This document shows positions 703-9,098 of a DNA stretch of 64,000 nucleotides, piece after piece. The stretch is from an uncultured Muribaculaceae bacterium (GTDB lineage: Bacteria; Bacteroidota; Bacteroidia; Bacteroidales; UBA932). Position numbers and translations under genes: made by a program. Under the pieces are notes generated by a model. It was not told the origin of the DNA and searched no databases. It saw nothing but the letters and a program-made list of their open reading frames with translations. Numbering within the stretch: position 1 is the stretch's first letter; every line of letters begins with the position of its first letter. The DNA lies in assembly GCA_964349315.1 (NCBI GenBank), contig CAYGGD010000001.1, positions 758 through 64,757 of the forward strand. The letters are read 5' to 3'.

Positions 703-733
703 TTTGGTATTTTAAAAAACATCCCTACCTTTG
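703..733 (+). promoter_or_regulatory. Bacteroidota housekeeping promoter for the TetR operon
   Basis: TTTG (703-706), 19-nt spacer, TACCTTTG (726-733); matches the TTTG-N19-21-TAnnTTTG consensus. Confidence 0.8.
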
Positions 734-772: not shown

Positions 773-1318
773 ATGTTAATAGAGAATACAAAAAATAAAA
801 TCATGGATGCAGCTCTGGAGTTGTTTGCCAATAAAGGATTTCACACAACTACTGTTAGTGATATTGCAAAAAAGGCCGGAGTATCAAAAGGGTTGATGTA
901 TAACTATTTCAGAAGTAAAGAAGAGCTGCTGAAAGAGATAATAATGTCAGGGGTAAACAGCACAATGCAATTTCTGGACAAAAACAGAGATGGTGTACTA
1001 ACCAAAGAAGAACTGTTATACTTTATTAAACAGTCGCTAAAGACGATACAAACGAATCGTACATTATGGAAGCTTTACTACACAATTATATACCAACCTG
1101 CAGTAATGTCAATTGTAGAAAAAGAGCTTTACAAAACCTATGAGAGCTATGTGAAGATGGTTCTGAGCTATTTTGAGTCGCAGGGAGCCGAAGATCCGGT
1201 TAATGAGATGCGTTTTCTTAGTGCTATGCTGGATGGTGTTGCGCTGGGCTACCTTATGACAGAGATGGAGTATCCCCTAGATAAATTAGAAGAGAAAATT
1301 TTAAAACTATATTCCTGA
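773..1318 (+). CDS. TetR/AcrR-family regulator with an internal EF-hand-like loop
   Basis: HTH: IMDAALELFANKGFHTTTVSDIAKKAGVSKGLMYNYFRSKEEL. DKNRDGVLTKEE at 977-1012. ATG 773 preferred because TTG 731 lies inside the promoter box. Confidence 0.92.
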   Translation: MLIENTKNKIMDAALELFANKGFHTTTVSDIAKKAGVSKGLMYNYFRSKEELLKEIIMSGVNSTMQFLDKNRDGVLTKEELLYFIKQSLKTIQTNRTLWKLYYTIIYQPAVMSIVEKELYKTYESYVKMVLSYFESQGAEDPVNEMRFLSAMLDGVALGYLMTEMEYPLDKLEEKILKLYS

Positions 1319-1331
1319 AAAAATTAGTGTT

Positions 1332-2075
1332 ATGAAAAAATTGTTAACATTCGCTTTTCTCCTTTCCTACTCTGTGCTCGCTGCTCAGGACGCCACAGAA
1401 ATAATAAGAAAAGCAGACGATAAGTGGAGTGGCGAAATATCAAGTCAAAGCCAAATGACAATGACAATAATCCGGCCTTCGTGGGAACGGACTATTGAAT
1501 TCAAAAGCTGGAGCAAAGGAAGAGATATGGCAATGACATTAATCACTGCTCCTGCGCGGGAGAGAGGTCAGGCTTTTCTGAAGCGAAATAAAGAGATGTG
1601 GAACTGGATGCCCTCTATAGAGAGGATGGTTAAGTTACCCCCATCAATGATGGCAGACGGGTGGATGGGGTCTGACTACACAAACGACGATATTCTTAAC
1701 GAATCGTCGATGGTTACAGACTATACACACACCCTCATGAGATCAGAAAAAATTGATGGTGCAGACTGCTGGGTTATAGAACTCATACCCCATGAAGATG
1801 CTGCCGTTGTTTGGGGTAAAATAATCAAATGGATTGATAAAAAAGAGTATATACAATATCGTTCAGAATACTTCGACGAAGAGGACTTCCTGATTAAAAC
1901 CGAAATTGCCTCTGAGATAAAAACTATGGATGGAAGGGTTATCCCCACAATAATTGAGGTTATTCCGGCAGAGAAGAGAAACCAGAAAACCGTTATTACA
2001 CTCAAGGATATTAAGTTTAACATCCCAATAGAAGACTCTTTCTTTTCGCAACAGAACATGAGAAGAGTGCGATAA
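1332..2075 (+). CDS. LolA-like outer membrane lipoprotein-sorting family protein
   Basis: Signal peptide MKKLLTFAFLLSYSVLAAQ; family-typical GQAFLK..KEMWNWMP and WMGSDYTNDD segments; precedes ABC genes. Confidence 0.8.
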   Translation: MKKLLTFAFLLSYSVLAAQDATEIIRKADDKWSGEISSQSQMTMTIIRPSWERTIEFKSWSKGRDMAMTLITAPARERGQAFLKRNKEMWNWMPSIERMVKLPPSMMADGWMGSDYTNDDILNESSMVTDYTHTLMRSEKIDGADCWVIELIPHEDAAVVWGKIIKWIDKKEYIQYRSEYFDEEDFLIKTEIASEIKTMDGRVIPTIIEVIPAEKRNQKTVITLKDIKFNIPIEDSFFSQQNMRRVR

Positions 2076-2092
2076 CAGTAAATCTATACAAT

Positions 2093-3307
2093 ATGAACTA
2101 CATTAAACTTTCGTGGAGAAACCTCTGGAGAAATAAAAGAAGAACCCTGATTACGGTTGCAAGTATCTTTTTCGGGGTTGTTCTCTCTACTCTGATGAGT
2201 TCTATGATGAATGGAACCTACCAGAATATGATTGATATGATGGTTAAGCTCTCTACAGGGTACATTCAGGTTCAGGATCCCGAATTTAAGGAGACCCGGT
2301 CCGTAAACAATGTTTTTTACCCCGAATCAGCTATGATTCAGGGCATAAAAGATATCCCTCAGGTTACGGTAGTAACCGAACGGATTGAATCTTTTGCCCT
2401 TTTATCCTCCGGGGCAAATACAAGGGGCGGTGCAGTTATAGGATTCGAACCACAATACGACGGCGAAACCTCAAACTTGCGCAACTGGGTAAAAGAGGGC
2501 TCTTTTCTGCAACCCGGCGACAACGGAGTTCTGGTTACGGCCAATATTGCAAAAAGCTTAAATCTCGGGGTAAACGACACAATTATACTAATAAGCCAGG
2601 GGTATCGGGGGGTATCTGCCGCCGGACTCTATCAGGTTAAGGGTATTCTCGAGTTTAGTACCCCACAGCTCAATAATCTCGGAGTTTTCATGGATATCGC
2701 AGAGGCACGGTCTTTTTTTCACACAGATGAAATGATTACCTCTCTTATGATAATGGTCAGCGACTATACTCATGTAAACAGAGTACACCGATCAATAGAA
2801 CCGCTTACCGGAGATTTGCTTGTAAGAGACTGGACAGAACTTAATCCCGAACTGGTAAACTTTATCGAGGGAGACAGAGCTGGAGGGAATTTGATGATTG
2901 GTATTTTATATGTTGTTATTGCTTTCGGAATTTTCGGAACTATAATAATGCTTGTAGCCGAAAGAAAAAAGGAGATGGCTGTAATGACAGCGGTTGGTAT
3001 GAGAAAATACAAGCTTGCACTAATGTTTTTTATAGAGACATTGCTTATTGGAATTACAGGTGTGTTATCTGGTTTTGCTGCAAGTGTACCTATAATAGCA
3101 GCCCTGGTGAAAAACCCTGTTGCACTTCCCGACAATGTGGCCGATGCGTATCTCCAATATGGATTCGACCCATATATGTTTTTTAGTGCCTCTCCATCGG
3201 TATTTATTAATCAGGTTGTTATTGTTTTTATCATAACAATGATAATATCTGTTTACCCGATAATTAAAATAAAAAAATTGTCGGTTGCCGGCTCTTTAAA
3301 ATCGTAA
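2093..3307 (+). CDS. ABC transporter permease (LolC/E, MacB/FtsX family)
   Basis: LSWRNLWRNKRRTLIT N-terminus, one TM, large periplasmic domain, three C-terminal TMs; ERKKEMAVMTAVG motif. Confidence 0.9.
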   Translation: MNYIKLSWRNLWRNKRRTLITVASIFFGVVLSTLMSSMMNGTYQNMIDMMVKLSTGYIQVQDPEFKETRSVNNVFYPESAMIQGIKDIPQVTVVTERIESFALLSSGANTRGGAVIGFEPQYDGETSNLRNWVKEGSFLQPGDNGVLVTANIAKSLNLGVNDTIILISQGYRGVSAAGLYQVKGILEFSTPQLNNLGVFMDIAEARSFFHTDEMITSLMIMVSDYTHVNRVHRSIEPLTGDLLVRDWTELNPELVNFIEGDRAGGNLMIGILYVVIAFGIFGTIIMLVAERKKEMAVMTAVGMRKYKLALMFFIETLLIGITGVLSGFAASVPIIAALVKNPVALPDNVADAYLQYGFDPYMFFSASPSVFINQVVIVFIITMIISVYPIIKIKKLSVAGSLKS

Positions 3308-3324: not shown

Positions 3325-4545
3325 ATGATTTATTCTGTATCGTGGCGCAATGTATGGAGAAATAAAACCCGAAGTATGGTTATTATAACCGCTGTTGGGT
3401 TGGGAATATTTGCCGGGGTATACACAATTGCCTTTATGTTTGGCATGGTAAACCAACGCATTGAGACAGTAATCTCCACTGAAATCTCTCATATTCAAAT
3501 TCATACGCCTAAATATTTAGAAACAACTGAAATAAACGACTTTATTAGTGGTACCGATAATGTTGTGAGTCATATTCAGAGCAACCCAAATGTGGCGGCA
3601 GTATCGTCAAGGATAATCAGCAACTGTATGATAGCTTCGGCCGAGAGTGGGTCAGGAGTACAACTTGTTGGTATAGATCCGGAGAGAGAGATGGAGGTGA
3701 CAAATATTCACTCAAAAATTACCGAGGGTTCTTATTTCGAAGGAGAGTCTGCCAATCAGATAGTGATCGGACAAAAACTGGCCGAAAAGCTAAATGTCGG
3801 AATAAGATCGAGGGTTGTTGTAACCCTTACAGAGTCTGATGGTACAATTACAGGAGGAGCATTCAGGGTTGCCGGCATATTCACCACATCCAATGTCGAT
3901 TTTGACGAAAGCCGGGCCTATGTAAAAACAGAAAGGCTTAAACAGATGCTTCAAACTGAGCCTGATATTGCACACCAAATTGCAGTTTTGCTAACTGAAA
4001 ACGATAAAGAGAAGGAGGTTGCCGATTATATAAAAGCAGGCTTTCCCGAATTAAGCGTAATGACCTGGGACGAAATTCTTCCCGATATGAAAATGATGAA
4101 CGAGTCGATGGCTTTTATGATGTATATAATTGTGGGAATAATTTTACTGGCACTTGGTTTCGGAATTGTAAACACAATGCTTATGGTAATACTCGAAAGG
4201 GTAAAAGAGTTTGGAATGCTTATGGCTGTGGGGATGAGCAAAACCAGAATTTTCTCAATGGTGGTTCTTGAATCAGTATTTCTTTCTTTAACCGGAGGGA
4301 CTGCCGGAATTGTACTGGCTTCGGTTTTAACAGCAATAACTGCTAAAAGTGGACTGAATATGGCCTTTTGGGCCGAAGGATTAAACTCAATGGGATTCGA
4401 TTCGGTAATTTACCCCGAAATTGGAGCAGACTCCTTAATAATTGTTACCCTTCTGGTAATTTTTACCGGAATTGCTGCTGCAATTTACCCGGCAAAAAAA
4501 GCTATTTCGCTTAACCCGGCAGAATCACTTAGGATAGATATGTAA
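3325..4545 (+). CDS. ABC transporter permease (LolC/E, MacB/FtsX family)
   Basis: SWRNVWRNKTRS; ERVKEFGMLMAVG; PAKKAISLNPAESLR C-terminus. Confidence 0.9.
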   Translation: MIYSVSWRNVWRNKTRSMVIITAVGLGIFAGVYTIAFMFGMVNQRIETVISTEISHIQIHTPKYLETTEINDFISGTDNVVSHIQSNPNVAAVSSRIISNCMIASAESGSGVQLVGIDPEREMEVTNIHSKITEGSYFEGESANQIVIGQKLAEKLNVGIRSRVVVTLTESDGTITGGAFRVAGIFTTSNVDFDESRAYVKTERLKQMLQTEPDIAHQIAVLLTENDKEKEVADYIKAGFPELSVMTWDEILPDMKMMNESMAFMMYIIVGIILLALGFGIVNTMLMVILERVKEFGMLMAVGMSKTRIFSMVVLESVFLSLTGGTAGIVLASVLTAITAKSGLNMAFWAEGLNSMGFDSVIYPEIGADSLIIVTLLVIFTGIAAAIYPAKKAISLNPAESLRIDM

Positions 4546-4564: not shown

Positions 4565-5251
4565 ATGCAAGTATTGAAACTAAAAGATCTTGTAAAAATT
4601 TACAACGACTCAGAAATAAAGGTCAAAGCAGTTGATAATGTTAATATCAATTTCGACCAGGGAGAATTCTCTGCAATAGTCGGACCTTCGGGAAGTGGAA
4701 AAACCACCCTTCTTAACCTTATCGGAGGTTTAGACTCCATTACTCAGGGCGAAATTATAATAAACGGAACCAATATAGGTGCGCTGAAACCGAGCGAACT
4801 AATAAACTTCCGGCTACTCAATATTGGTTTTGTTTTTCAGGCCTATAATCTTATCCCTGTAATGACAGCCCTTGAGAATGTAGAGTTTATTATGCAACTA
4901 CAGGGAGTAAGTAAAGAACTACGGGAGAAAAGAGCAATGGAGCTGCTTGATGCGGTAGGCTTGGCAGACAGGGCCAACAGCAGACCCGCCAGACTCTCGG
5001 GAGGACAACAGCAAAGAGTAGCAGTTGCAAGGGCTTTGGCCTCTAAGCCTAAGTTTATCCTGGCCGACGAACCCACAGCAAACCTCGACTCCAAATCGGC
5101 AGAATCACTGCTGAATATTATGGAAAAACTCAACCAAGAGGAGAAGATTACATTTATTTTCTCAACCCACGATATGAGAGTTGTAAATAAGGCAAAAAGA
5201 GTAATTACTGTAGAGGACGGACATGTTGTATCTGACAATTGGAAAGCATAA
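4565..5251 (+). CDS. ABC transporter ATP-binding protein (LolD-like)
   Basis: Walker A GPSGSGKT, signature LSGGQQQRV, Walker B ILADEPT, H-loop STHD. Confidence 0.95.
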   Translation: MQVLKLKDLVKIYNDSEIKVKAVDNVNINFDQGEFSAIVGPSGSGKTTLLNLIGGLDSITQGEIIINGTNIGALKPSELINFRLLNIGFVFQAYNLIPVMTALENVEFIMQLQGVSKELREKRAMELLDAVGLADRANSRPARLSGGQQQRVAVARALASKPKFILADEPTANLDSKSAESLLNIMEKLNQEEKITFIFSTHDMRVVNKAKRVITVEDGHVVSDNWKA

Positions 5252-5252
5252 A

Positions 5253-6401
5253 ATGAAACTTATATTAATCATAGTCGCTGCAATTTTGGTTTTACCCGCA
5301 AAAGGGTCTGATCGTATTAAGACCGGAGGGTATGTTAAGTATATGAACTCAGTTATGTTCGGTGAGTATGACTCTCCATGGATGATAGACAACCTTATCC
5401 ATAACCGAATAAATTTCAACTGGTTTGCCGGCGACAATCTCACTTTTAACGCAGGGATGCGTAACAGATTAATATATGGAGATTTTGTCCGTTTTGTGCC
5501 GGAATACGATAAGCTGATATCTCAAGACAACGGCCTTCTCCATTTTTTATCGGCAAAAATCGGCTCTGCCGAATCTTCGGTTCTATTAACCACTTTTGAC
5601 AGGTTTAATTTTGAATATAATAAGGGCAGAACATCAATAACTGCAGGCAGACAAAGAATTAACTGGGGACAATCTTTTGCATGGAACCCAAACGACATAT
5701 TTAATGCCTACTCCTTTTTAGACTTCGACTACGAAGAGCGTTCGGGCAGTGATGCTGTAAGAGTTCGTTTTTTCCCCGATTTCACATCTGTTATAGATGT
5801 TGCAGTTAAAATGGATCGAGAGAATAATATTACAGCAGCAGGGCTATACCGCTTTAACAAATGGGGATATGATATTCAGTTTTTAGCCGGGGTAATTGGG
5901 AATCAAGACTATGTTGCAGGAACAGGACTATCGGGAAGCATCGGCAAAATGGGTGTAACAGGAGAGGCAAGCTACTTTCACCCCAAAAAAAACTACAGGG
6001 ATACAACGGGGATTTTCATGATTAATGCAGGACTAAACTATATGTTTAGCAATTCACTGATGATAAACTTCGAAGCGATTTACAACGGATATTTCCGTCA
6101 CATATCAATGGATAGCTATACTGATATCTACTATTCATCGATGTCGGTAAAAACAATAGCATTCAGCAAGTTCTCATGGTTCGGACAACTTTCATATCCA
6201 TTACACCCTCTGCTTAACGCCTCTCTTGCAACAATGTACCTACCTTCGCTGGGAAACGGTTTCATTGTAATGCCCTCAATTGCATACTCTGCAAGTAATG
6301 ATCTGGAAATATCCCTCCGTGGACAACAATTCAGCGGAGAGTTTGGGGAAATTAGCGAAAAGCTTAATATGCTCTTTTTAAGATTCCGTTACAGCTTTTA
6401 G
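5253..6401 (+). CDS. Predicted outer-membrane beta-barrel protein of unknown function
   Basis: Signal peptide from ATG 5253 (MKLILIIVAAILVLPAKG), amphipathic strands, C-terminal BAM-type LRFRYSF; 1 nt after the ATPase stop. Confidence 0.75.
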   Translation: MKLILIIVAAILVLPAKGSDRIKTGGYVKYMNSVMFGEYDSPWMIDNLIHNRINFNWFAGDNLTFNAGMRNRLIYGDFVRFVPEYDKLISQDNGLLHFLSAKIGSAESSVLLTTFDRFNFEYNKGRTSITAGRQRINWGQSFAWNPNDIFNAYSFLDFDYEERSGSDAVRVRFFPDFTSVIDVAVKMDRENNITAAGLYRFNKWGYDIQFLAGVIGNQDYVAGTGLSGSIGKMGVTGEASYFHPKKNYRDTTGIFMINAGLNYMFSNSLMINFEAIYNGYFRHISMDSYTDIYYSSMSVKTIAFSKFSWFGQLSYPLHPLLNASLATMYLPSLGNGFIVMPSIAYSASNDLEISLRGQQFSGEFGEISEKLNMLFLRFRYSF

Positions 6402-6998: not shown

Positions 6999-7793
6999 AT
7001 GAAAGAATATATTTCTCTTCTCAACCATATTATAAATAACGGAGCATACAAAAGCGACCGGACAGGAACCGGTACAAAAAGTGTGTTCGGGTACCAAATG
7101 CGCTTTGATCTTTCAAAAGGATTCCCGCTGCTAACTACAAAGAAAGTACACCTCCGGTCTATTATATACGAACTTCTCTGGTTTATCAAGGGTGATACAA
7201 ACATTAAATACCTTAACGATAACGGAGTTACCATCTGGGACGAATGGGCTGATGAGAGTGGTAATCTAGGTCCGGTTTACGGCTCACAATGGCGAAGCTG
7301 GGGCTGTCCCGATGGGATAGTAATTGATCAGCTTTCTTTGTTGATTGAGGGGATAAAAAAAAATCCTGATTCTCGACGTCATATTATAAGTGCTTGGAAT
7401 CCGTGTGAGTTAAATAAAATGGCACTCCCTCCATGCCATACTATGTTCCAATTTTATGTGGCGGACGGTAAACTTAGCTGCCAGCTTTATCAACGAAGCG
7501 CCGATGTATTTCTCGGGGTCCCTTTTAATATTGCTTCGTATGCTCTACTTACAATGATGATCGCCCAGGTTTGTAATTTAAAACCCGGAGAATTTGTTCA
7601 TACATTGGGTGACGCGCATATTTACCAAAACCACTTCGATCAGGTTGCAATTCAGCTTTCAAGGGAACTTCGTCCACTTCCCGTTATGAGAATTGACCCT
7701 GCAGTAAAATCTATTTTCGATTTTAAATTCGAGCATTTCTCGCTTGAGGGATACGACCCTCATCCGGGAATAAAAGCACCAATAGCAGTATAG
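6999..7793 (+). CDS. thyA: Thymidylate synthase
   Basis: DRTGTGT, catalytic [25 protein letters not shown]; 264 aa. Confidence 0.98.
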
Positions 7794-7795
7794 AA

Positions 7796-8305
7796 ATGGA
7801 AAGAGAACCTCTGTTATCAATTATAGTTGCAGTATCAGAAAACAATGCAATAGGACGCGACAACAAACTGCTGTGGCATCTGCCCGACGATCTTAAATAC
7901 TTTAAAAAAACAACATCTGGGAGCACTGTTATCATGGGGCGTAAAACCTGGGAATCTATTGGCCGTCCACTGCCCCAACGACGCAACATTGTAGTTAGCA
8001 GTAAAGCCATTATACCGGGAGTTGAGGTTTACGGTTCGTTATACGAAGCCATTGATGCTGCAAAAGCGAGCTCCTCACCTGACCCCGAAAACCCTGGTGA
8101 AATATTTATTATCGGAGGGGCAGAAATCTATAAACAATCCCTCCCATTTGCCGATAAAATATATCTTACGGTTGTTAACCAAACAATAACCGATGCAGAC
8201 ACTTTTTTCCCGGAAATAGACCATTCACAATGGATTCAAATACATTGTGAGCAAGTAGAATACGGCAAACGACTCGTTCTTGTAAAAAAACAGCCCCTTT
8301 TATAG
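7796..8305 (+). CDS. folA: Dihydrofolate reductase
   Basis: NNAIG..NKLLWHLPDDL, VIMGRKTWESI, LPQRRNIV, FIIGGAEIY, ADTFFP; directly follows thyA. Confidence 0.96.
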   Translation: MEREPLLSIIVAVSENNAIGRDNKLLWHLPDDLKYFKKTTSGSTVIMGRKTWESIGRPLPQRRNIVVSSKAIIPGVEVYGSLYEAIDAAKASSSPDPENPGEIFIIGGAEIYKQSLPFADKIYLTVVNQTITDADTFFPEIDHSQWIQIHCEQVEYGKRLVLVKKQPLL

Positions 8306-8390
8306 AAAGATCTTATATCTGCATAAACAGAGTTGATAGAACAATTCTGTCGATTGTTGTGTTACATTCATATAAGTAAATTATAATGTC

Positions 8391-9098
8391 ATGAGACGAT
8401 TTTTAATCACAGCATTGGTAATTGCATTACCTGTAATGGTTATTGCATTTACAAACAATAATAAAACACAAATGAATATGAAAACACTAAATAAGTTTGA
8501 ATTCCCTCAACTTCCCTATGCTTACGACGCACTTGAGCCATACATCGACAAGATGACTATGGAAATCCACTACAGCAGACACCACAAAGCATATTTCGAC
8601 AATTTTGTTGCTGCCATTAAGGGTACAGCAATGGAAGATATGACAATTGAACAAATTTTTGCCAATATCAGCAAATTTCCTGCTGCTGTAAGAAATAACG
8701 GAGGTGGTTTTTACAATCATGTTATTTACTGGGAAAATATGAAACTGAAGGGAGGCGAGCCGTCATCAAAGCTACTGGAAGCTATTAACAAGACTTTCGG
8801 CTCTATAGACGAACTTAAAAAGCAGTTTTCCGATGCCGGCAAAACCCGTTTCGGCAGTGGTTGGGCCTGGCTTAGCGTTAATGAAAAAGGTGAGCTGTTT
8901 GTCTCTTCCACTCCAAATCAAGACAATCCGCTAATGGATGTTGCCGACAAACAAGGAACTCCAATTTTGGGAATGGATGTATGGGAGCATGCATATTATC
9001 TGAAATATCAAAACAAACGCCCAGACTATGTAGAGGCATTCTGGAGTATTATTAACTGGGAGGTTGTATCGCAGAGATACCAGGAGCTAGTTAAATAG
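8391..9098 (+). CDS. sodA: Mn-type (Mn/Fe family) superoxide dismutase with N-terminal signal-like leader
   Basis: LPYAYDALEP, HYSRHH, NNGGGFYNH, RFGSGWAWL, TPNQDNP, DVWEHAYY. The GGG and Q residues are Mn-type discriminators. Confidence 0.93.
   Translation: MRRFLITALVIALPVMVIAFTNNNKTQMNMKTLNKFEFPQLPYAYDALEPYIDKMTMEIHYSRHHKAYFDNFVAAIKGTAMEDMTIEQIFANISKFPAAVRNNGGGFYNHVIYWENMKLKGGEPSSKLLEAINKTFGSIDELKKQFSDAGKTRFGSGWAWLSVNEKGELFVSSTPNQDNPLMDVADKQGTPILGMDVWEHAYYLKYQNKRPDYVEAFWSIINWEVVSQRYQELVK

Follow-up and report, generated by a model that had tools for sequence, protein, structure and literature searches.

TetR-family regulators with DNA binding that responds to metals include TetR itself, which acts with Mg2+-tetracycline, SczA from Streptococcus pneumoniae (Zn2+) and ComR from E. 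coli (Cu). None of these three is known to use an EF-hand loop or to sense Ca2+. The repressor described here is built on the same TetR scaffold and may likewise bind DNA in response to a metal. In contrast to its candidate site, the His/Cys/Glu sites of TetR, SczA and ComR lie inside the ligand domain and bind transition metals or a drug chelate.

The FadR-type TetRs are the other close comparators. These comprise B. subtilis FadR/YsiA (1VI0/3WHB), Sulfolobus FadR (6EL2/6EN8), the Clostridium perfringens protein 6AZH, M. tuberculosis FasR (6O6O) and, in addition, B. halodurans FadR. The present repressor shares with them the fold (TM 0.66-0.80), an N-terminal helix-turn-helix (HTH), nine helices and, as predicted here, an autoregulated lipid-related operon with a palindromic operator. 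They differ at the connection between helices α4 and α5, which in the alignments of the FadR-type proteins lacks D-x-N-x-D-G ligands, and their effector is acyl-CoA, not a cation. No solved TetR with an EF loop was found when the PDB was searched by phmmer or with a profile of the family.

In EF-hands cation binding fixes the angle of the two flanking helices. Canonical EF-hands act in pairs, and unpaired sites often bind weakly. The loop considered here resembles site I of calmodulin (DKDGDGTITTKE) in having 12 residues, ligands at positions 1, 3, 5 and 12, Gly at position 6, a hydrophobic residue at position 8 and Thr at position 9, with hydrophobic residues at the usual sites of the flanking helices and an exit helix that is predicted to start from position 10. 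It differs from the canonical EF-hand in that it is single, unpaired, placed within a TetR helical bundle and apparently built in place, and its metal binding is putative. The loop may therefore be alike in its working but should not be filed in the EF-hand superfamily by descent. Calcium-binding DxDxDG loops in non-EF contexts were reportedly described by Rigden and Galperin in 2004. The present case is similar in that these EF-like Ca2+ loops arose convergently in unrelated frameworks, often singly. We know of no TetR regulator among the described DxDxDG-loop contexts. DREAM/KChIP3, a eukaryotic EF-hand repressor with Ca2+-controlled DNA binding, provides a functional analogy only, as its fold is unrelated and it contains four EF-hands. 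A full-text literature search found no paper on an EF-hand TetR or a Ca2+-binding TetR; the one TetR paper that names an EF-hand only cites CabC in its reference list (PMC6223229).

A TetR-family repressor at the head of an envelope-transport operon

The DNA analysed, a stretch of 64,000 nucleotides from an uncultured Muribaculaceae bacterium (the window), contains six tightly spaced, co-directional genes, of which the TetR gene is the first. The features of this locus are as follows.

726 to 733, plus strand: candidate Bacteroidota-type −7 box (TACCTTTG), fitting TAnnTTTG and overlapping the first bases of the putative operator.
732 to 749, no strand assigned: putative 18-bp operator dyad (TGACTGACCGTTCAGTCA, TGAC-N10-GTCA), 24 nt upstream of the ATG at 773.
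773 to 1318, plus strand: TetR/AcrR-family repressor gene, 181 aa counted from ATG 773, in a frame that is open from TTG 731.
1332 to 2075, plus strand: LolA-like (TP_0789-like) periplasmic protein (Pfam PF17131, 189 bits), whose gene comes directly after that for TetR in nearly every related locus.
2093 to 3307, plus strand: first FtsX/MacB-type permease (Pfam MacB_PCD and FtsX), conserved in position.
3325 to 4545, plus strand: second FtsX/MacB-type permease (Pfam FtsX and MacB_PCD), conserved in position.
4565 to 5251, plus strand: ABC ATPase (Pfam ABC_tran, 117 bits), with 57-86% identity in related loci.
5223 to 6401, plus strand: putative outer-membrane β-barrel protein of ~390 aa, the last gene of the operon, with a weak match to OMP_b-brl (E = 0.11).

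The first gene had been predicted to encode a TetR regulator, and its product indeed matches Pfam TetR_N (PF00440) at residues 10-56 with 76.2 bits against a cut-off of 24. The AlphaFold2 model of the full-length protein, for which the input alignment held 78 sequences, displays nine helices with a mean pLDDT of 92.6 and a pTM of 0.84. Foldseek returned 409 matches to this model in the PDB at E <= 0.001; the best 50 of the 409 are all TetR-family regulators, and the top matches among these 50 are FadR-type TetRs with TM scores of up to 0.80. FadR-type proteins were also the best matches in the family profile search of the PDB, with E ~1e-18. Every defining feature tested, the HTH, the predicted all-α two-domain fold and the putative palindromic operator, was found, and the protein is a member of the TetR/AcrR family. 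Within the family the modelled fold and the profile place it closest to the acyl-CoA-responsive, FadR-type subgroup, as represented by the solved FadR/FasR proteins.

The start of the TetR gene is ambiguous across 731-805. TTG 731 is unlikely to be the start codon because it falls within the −7 box and the operator, and ATG 773 was taken as the putative start. The database cluster P0002 begins at ATG 803 (171 aa), and most homologues have ~10 extra N-terminal residues relative to the ATG 773 product.

The view that the TetR gene heads an operon for envelope transport was also borne out. The order TetR, LolA-like protein, two FtsX permeases, ABC ATPase and barrel recurs in nearly all of 80 related loci, with and without the EF loop, and also beside divergent homologues whose flanks are wholly different. 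In the window the flanking genes are unrelated to the operon: the operon is preceded by an aldehyde dehydrogenase gene that ends at 691, and it is followed by a DUF4468 gene of opposite orientation and then by thyA-folA. The region 6999-9098, which contains thyA-folA (thymidylate synthase and dihydrofolate reductase) and then an Fe/Mn superoxide dismutase gene, consists of ordinary housekeeping genes. A gene whose product is 30-69% identical to the barrel protein occupies the same place in most loci. The barrel gene matches no Pfam family, the OMP_b-brl hit having only the E value listed above, although it is kept in most loci. Its first 29 nt (5223-5251) are shared with the end of the ABC ATPase gene, which suggests translational coupling of the two genes.

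The original prediction also placed an operator at 732-749. Of 81 loci, 48 have a near-identical dyad (TGAC-N(8-12)-GTCA) upstream of their TetR gene, and these include loci with the EF loop and loci without it. At the level of sequence the dyad is the expected operator of an autoregulated TetR operon. The candidate −7 box at 726-733 was assigned from TAnnTTTG, which we take to be the Bacteroidota-type −7 promoter consensus. The dyad and the T8 run that follows it (732-759) lie 41 nt past the stop of the aldehyde dehydrogenase gene at 691. Because eight T directly follow it, the dyad also scored as terminator-like, and in this genome 732-759 may be both operator and intrinsic terminator.

A predicted EF-hand-type loop between helices α4 and α5

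The segment of the repressor on which the analysis centres consists of a loop and two predicted helices.

917 to 967, plus strand: helix α4, residues 49-65, the entering helix of the EF-hand (DSSP on the AlphaFold2 model).
977 to 1012, plus strand: 12-residue EF-hand loop (DKNRDGVLTKEE), residues 69-80 of the 181-aa TetR counted from ATG 773.
1004 to 1054, plus strand: helix α5, residues 78-94, the exiting helix, which starts from loop position 10 (DSSP on both AlphaFold2 models).

The codons at 977-1012 translate as D-K-N-R-D-G-V-L-T-K-E-E, preceded by F-L and followed by L-L-Y-F, such that D1, N3, D5, G6, L8, T9, E12 and the hydrophobic flanks are all present as had been predicted. The loop, together with the next residue (L), is an exact match to the PROSITE regular expression PS00018 (EF_HAND_1), the scan by which the reading was to be checked. 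The Pfam EF-hand models matched residues 63-86 of the protein below their cut-offs, EF-hand_5 with E = 2e-4 (21.3 bits against 25.9) and EF-hand_1 (PF00036) with E = 4e-4 (20.3 bits against 25.4). 

In the full-length AlphaFold2 model residues 49-65 are helical, 66-77 are coil and 78-94 are again helical, with a pLDDT of ~90 over the loop. A single-sequence model of residues 47-96 (pLDDT 84) contains helices at 49-70 and 78-94. Since both models give helix-coil-helix, the motif is predicted to be a loop that joins two helices, with the exit helix leaving from position 10 like that of canonical EF-hands; the continuous helix that would have spoken against an EF-hand appears in neither. When the isolated α4-loop-α5 fragment from the single-sequence model was used to search the PDB, only generic helical hairpins were returned, all with E > 2, and neither an EF-hand protein nor a TetR was among them. 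The EF-hand had been assigned to the ligand-binding domain. The loop itself is real, but it sits in the α4-α5 connection, which forms the hinge from the DNA-binding to the ligand domain. It is also a lone EF-hand without a partner, with one motif per chain and one Pfam stretch in the sequences of the family. A scan of the other operon proteins for further Ca2+ motifs found none. The protein thus displays the loop consensus and a predicted helix-loop-helix, and lacks an EF-hand score above the Pfam cut-off, a paired hand and common descent with EF-hand proteins.

Conservation of the loop

A single match to PS00018 carries little weight. The genome assembly (1.98 Mb in 204 contigs, ~91% complete) yields 646,732 residues in open reading frames (ORFs) of at least 100 aa, in which the TetR loop is the one match to the pattern, while residue-shuffled proteomes are expected to contain about 2. 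Taken alone, the match of the window TetR is within chance expectation.

Position-specific conservation across orthologues is what lifts the loop above chance. The query, a cluster 100% identical to it and 119 homologues at 43-60% identity make up a set of 121 sequences, 109 of which match PS00018 at the same position. The remaining 12 are near-misses; examples of their departures are N, T or G in place of D at position 1 and S, K or E in place of G at position 6. The loop positions 1, 3, 5, 6 and 12, whose conservation had been proposed as a check, are near-invariant: position 1 is D in 111 of the 121 sequences, position 3 is N in 115 and D in the remaining 6, positions 5 and 6 are D in 117 and G in 116, respectively, and no sequence departs from E at position 12. 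L occupies position 8 in 116, and position 9 is T in 112 and S in 8. By contrast, positions 2, 4, 7, 10 and 11 vary freely. Across these sequences the fixed 1/3/5/6/8/9/12 and free 2/4/7/10/11 positions are the classic conservation signature of an EF-hand. Degenerate variants of the loop retain oxygen ligands, such as N at position 1 and D at position 3. Of the 24 best-conserved columns of the regulatory domain, 10 fall in the 29-residue EF segment, which is the best-conserved part of that domain. The poor conservation of the acidic positions that would have undermined the prediction was not encountered.

The codons at the ligand positions were compared over 42 loci. D1 is encoded by GAT in 29 and GAC in 13, N3 by AAT in 17 and AAC in 16, D5 by GAC in 21 and GAT in 20, and E12 by GAA in 28 and GAG in 14, while all four codons are in use for G6. 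As synonymous codons are mixed at every ligand position, selection acts on the amino acids. In the 80 related loci PS00018 is matched at the loop site in 41 TetR orthologues, compared with 3 matches elsewhere in the 534,056 residues of six-frame ORFs, the other residues numbering about 518,000. Pfam EF-hand_1 is found at E <= 0.01 in 66 of 78 family members. Some orthologues exceed the curated cut-offs; P0120 scores 30.2 against 25.4 for EF-hand_1 and 35.7 against 30 for EF-hand_7, and P0052 (28.6) and P0086 (28.2) also pass the Pfam EF-hand cut-off. A chance resemblance of no biological meaning, with which the single match per genome would agree, is ruled out by the conservation of the match at the same site in 41 of 80 loci and 109 of 121 homologues together with purifying selection at the protein level, and the probability that we leave to it is vanishingly small.

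Distribution and origin of the loop

As a trait of the regulator the EF-hand holds for a clade of the Bacteroidales but does not extend to the orthologues in Saprospiraceae, Lewinellaceae, Flavobacteriales, Cytophagales-type genomes and Ignavibacteriota, which keep the operon and the operator and have no EF ligands. In a maximum-likelihood tree of 75 orthologues, obtained by a quick search with the loop columns kept in and with low support at many forks, the EF loops, 35 strict and 6 degenerate, are all confined to one group of 52 rows. The members of this group are mostly Bacteroidales sensu lato (Tenuifilaceae, Marinilabiliaceae, Prolixibacteraceae, Rikenellaceae and Salinivirgaceae), and its 19-row sister group contains no EF loop. 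The tree is compatible with a single origin of the loop, which may have been followed by a few losses or decays.

Anchor residues G60 and F84 stand 23 residues apart in every row with the EF loop and 22-24 apart in nearly all rows without it, which argues that no module was inserted and that the loop was remodelled in place. At the sites that match loop positions 9-12 the non-EF relatives already have a helix-capping D/S/T-P-x-E/Q. By sequence comparison the EF loop is thus a clade-specific acquisition made in place, for the most part with the loop length unchanged, and it is not derived by common descent from EF-hand proteins.

When 36 orthologues with the EF loop were compared with 33 without it, a position being counted as EF-specific if conserved in at least 80% of the former and at most 30% of the latter, the residues conserved in the EF group only were D69, D73, G74, L76, E80 and F84. 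It should be noted that the difference at the loop positions is circular, as the groups were defined by the loop, while the absence of other differences is not. Both groups share the residues of the HTH and, in the core, W99, L101, Q108, P142 and G155. As nothing besides the loop set differs, the two groups would share the same DNA target and probably the same ligand pocket, with one feature added; in these alignments the EF-hand is the sole conserved feature specific to the clade.

The Bacteroidales metagenome-assembled genome CAZDCZ01 has two paralogues of the regulator, L056 and L059. One lies at the operon and has a non-EF loop, and the other has a decayed EF-like loop, G-N-N-K-N-D-I-L-T-K-D-E, and lacks LolA-like and FtsX genes in its neighbourhood. 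Beyond the Bacteroidota, relatives of the regulator without the EF loop also occur, in Sneathiella sp. of the Pseudomonadota (L110) and in Ignavibacteriota (L067, L080, L087 and L091). Of the Ignavibacteriota loci L067, L080 and L087 contain the operon, and L091 is a 2.6-kb contig without operon genes. These relatives hint at old ancestry or transfer of the operon module.

A candidate regulatory cation site

The reading that we favour, to which we assign a probability of about 0.45 on the basis of sequence and predicted structure, is that the loop is a regulatory site for a divalent cation, most likely Ca2+. In TetR and QacR helix α4 is the lever that passes movements of the ligand domain to the DNA-reading heads. 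The loop would be a selectively maintained cation site of the EF-hand type, which likely arose by point substitutions in the existing α4-α5 hairpin of a FadR-like TetR in an ancestor of the Bacteroidales clade. A dimer of the repressor would bind the 18-bp dyad and repress the six-gene operon. Because α4 is the TetR lever, a cation held in the loop, which caps α4 and starts α5, would set the angle between these helices and thereby change the affinity for the operator. The operon would then gain a Ca2+ input besides the hydrophobic, lipid-type ligand of the shared pocket. Ca2+ could act either as inducer or as co-repressor. Several observations count against a sensory role. The window TetR falls below the Pfam EF-hand cut-offs, the EF-hand is unpaired, and T-x-x-E at positions 9-12 is an ordinary helix-capping box with an equivalent cap in the non-EF relatives. 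In addition, free Ca2+ in the bacterial cytoplasm is sub-micromolar and Mg2+ is millimolar, which makes occupancy by Ca2+ in vivo uncertain. The wider proposal of a clade of cytoplasmic one-component Ca2+-sensing transcription factors, which acquired an EF-hand de novo in the α4-α5 hinge and control an envelope-spanning LolA-like/ABC lipid exporter in Bacteroidales, is put forward as tentative and is, on balance, doubtful.

The conservation of the loop would fit equally with a structural site, at which Ca2+ or Mg2+ is constitutively bound and stabilizes the α4-α5 turn, with regulation exerted wholly by a hydrophobic ligand. Many bacterial EF-hand-like loops are structural. The closest folds, among the best 50 of the 409 PDB matches, are acyl-CoA-sensing FadR/FasR proteins, and the core pocket residues are common to the non-EF orthologues, which argues that a small-molecule ligand is probably retained. 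The orthologues elsewhere, however, manage without the site, most of them with a loop of equal length, indicating that the scaffold needs no metal for its stability, and the placement of the loop at the end of the α4 lever suits allostery; a solely structural role is somewhat unlikely. The loop could also function without metal, D-x-N-x-D-G-x-L-T-x-x-E being kept as a tight turn and helix cap, or in order to contact a partner protein or the polar head group of a ligand. A capping box at positions 9-12 would account for part of the motif, as the non-EF relatives have D/S/T-P-x-E/Q at the same site, but leaves unexplained the near-invariant D1, N/D3, D5 and G6 alongside free positions 2, 4 and 7. 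Although the sub-threshold Pfam scores of the window TetR and the resemblance of the fragment model to plain hairpins (matches with E > 2) are in keeping with a loop that binds no cation, the conservation pattern is exactly that of the ligands of a Ca2+ loop and the degenerate variants keep oxygen ligands, and we consider this explanation unlikely.

A further alternative is that the cation links the loop to a negatively charged ligand, such as acyl-CoA or a lipid with a phosphate group, and is part of the inducer rather than the signal. The inducer pocket of TetR, which receives a metal chelate (Mg2+-tetracycline), is bordered by the C-terminal end of α4 and the start of α5. The nearest folds, again among the best 50 of the 409 matches, bind acyl-CoA, and the operon moves what is probably a lipid. 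In a canonical EF loop, however, the seven coordination positions are filled by the protein and one water, which leaves little room for a ligand oxygen, and nothing in this analysis puts the loop at the mouth of the pocket. Such a bridging role thus appears improbable.

Implications

If the structural or the metal-free explanation is correct, the finding shrinks to a curious conserved motif. If, on the other hand, the loop is a regulatory Ca2+ site, the protein would be a direct Ca2+-sensing repressor, which is undescribed for the TetR family, and would be for bacteria the direct equivalent of DREAM and other Ca2+-regulated repressors. The system consists of a small soluble repressor that should be easy to purify, with a defined 18-bp putative operator and, at the allosteric lever, an EF-hand loop of textbook form. 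Natural controls are provided by the loop-free orthologues of this operon, and harmless cultured carriers exist in Labilibacter marinus Y11 and Saccharicrinis sp. FJH62. A functional site would also offer synthetic biology a compact Ca2+-responsive switch of the TetR type.

With respect to the evolution of the family, the loop is a clear example of an EF-hand that was formed within an unrelated fold, in place and through substitutions. Whether intracellular Ca2+ serves bacteria as a signal is an old and unanswered question. Direct sensors of cytoplasmic Ca2+ in these organisms are, to our knowledge, very few, and we know of no one-component Ca2+-binding transcription factor that has been characterized. 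A Ca2+-sensing repressor, if confirmed, would provide a handle on Ca2+ as a second messenger in bacteria.
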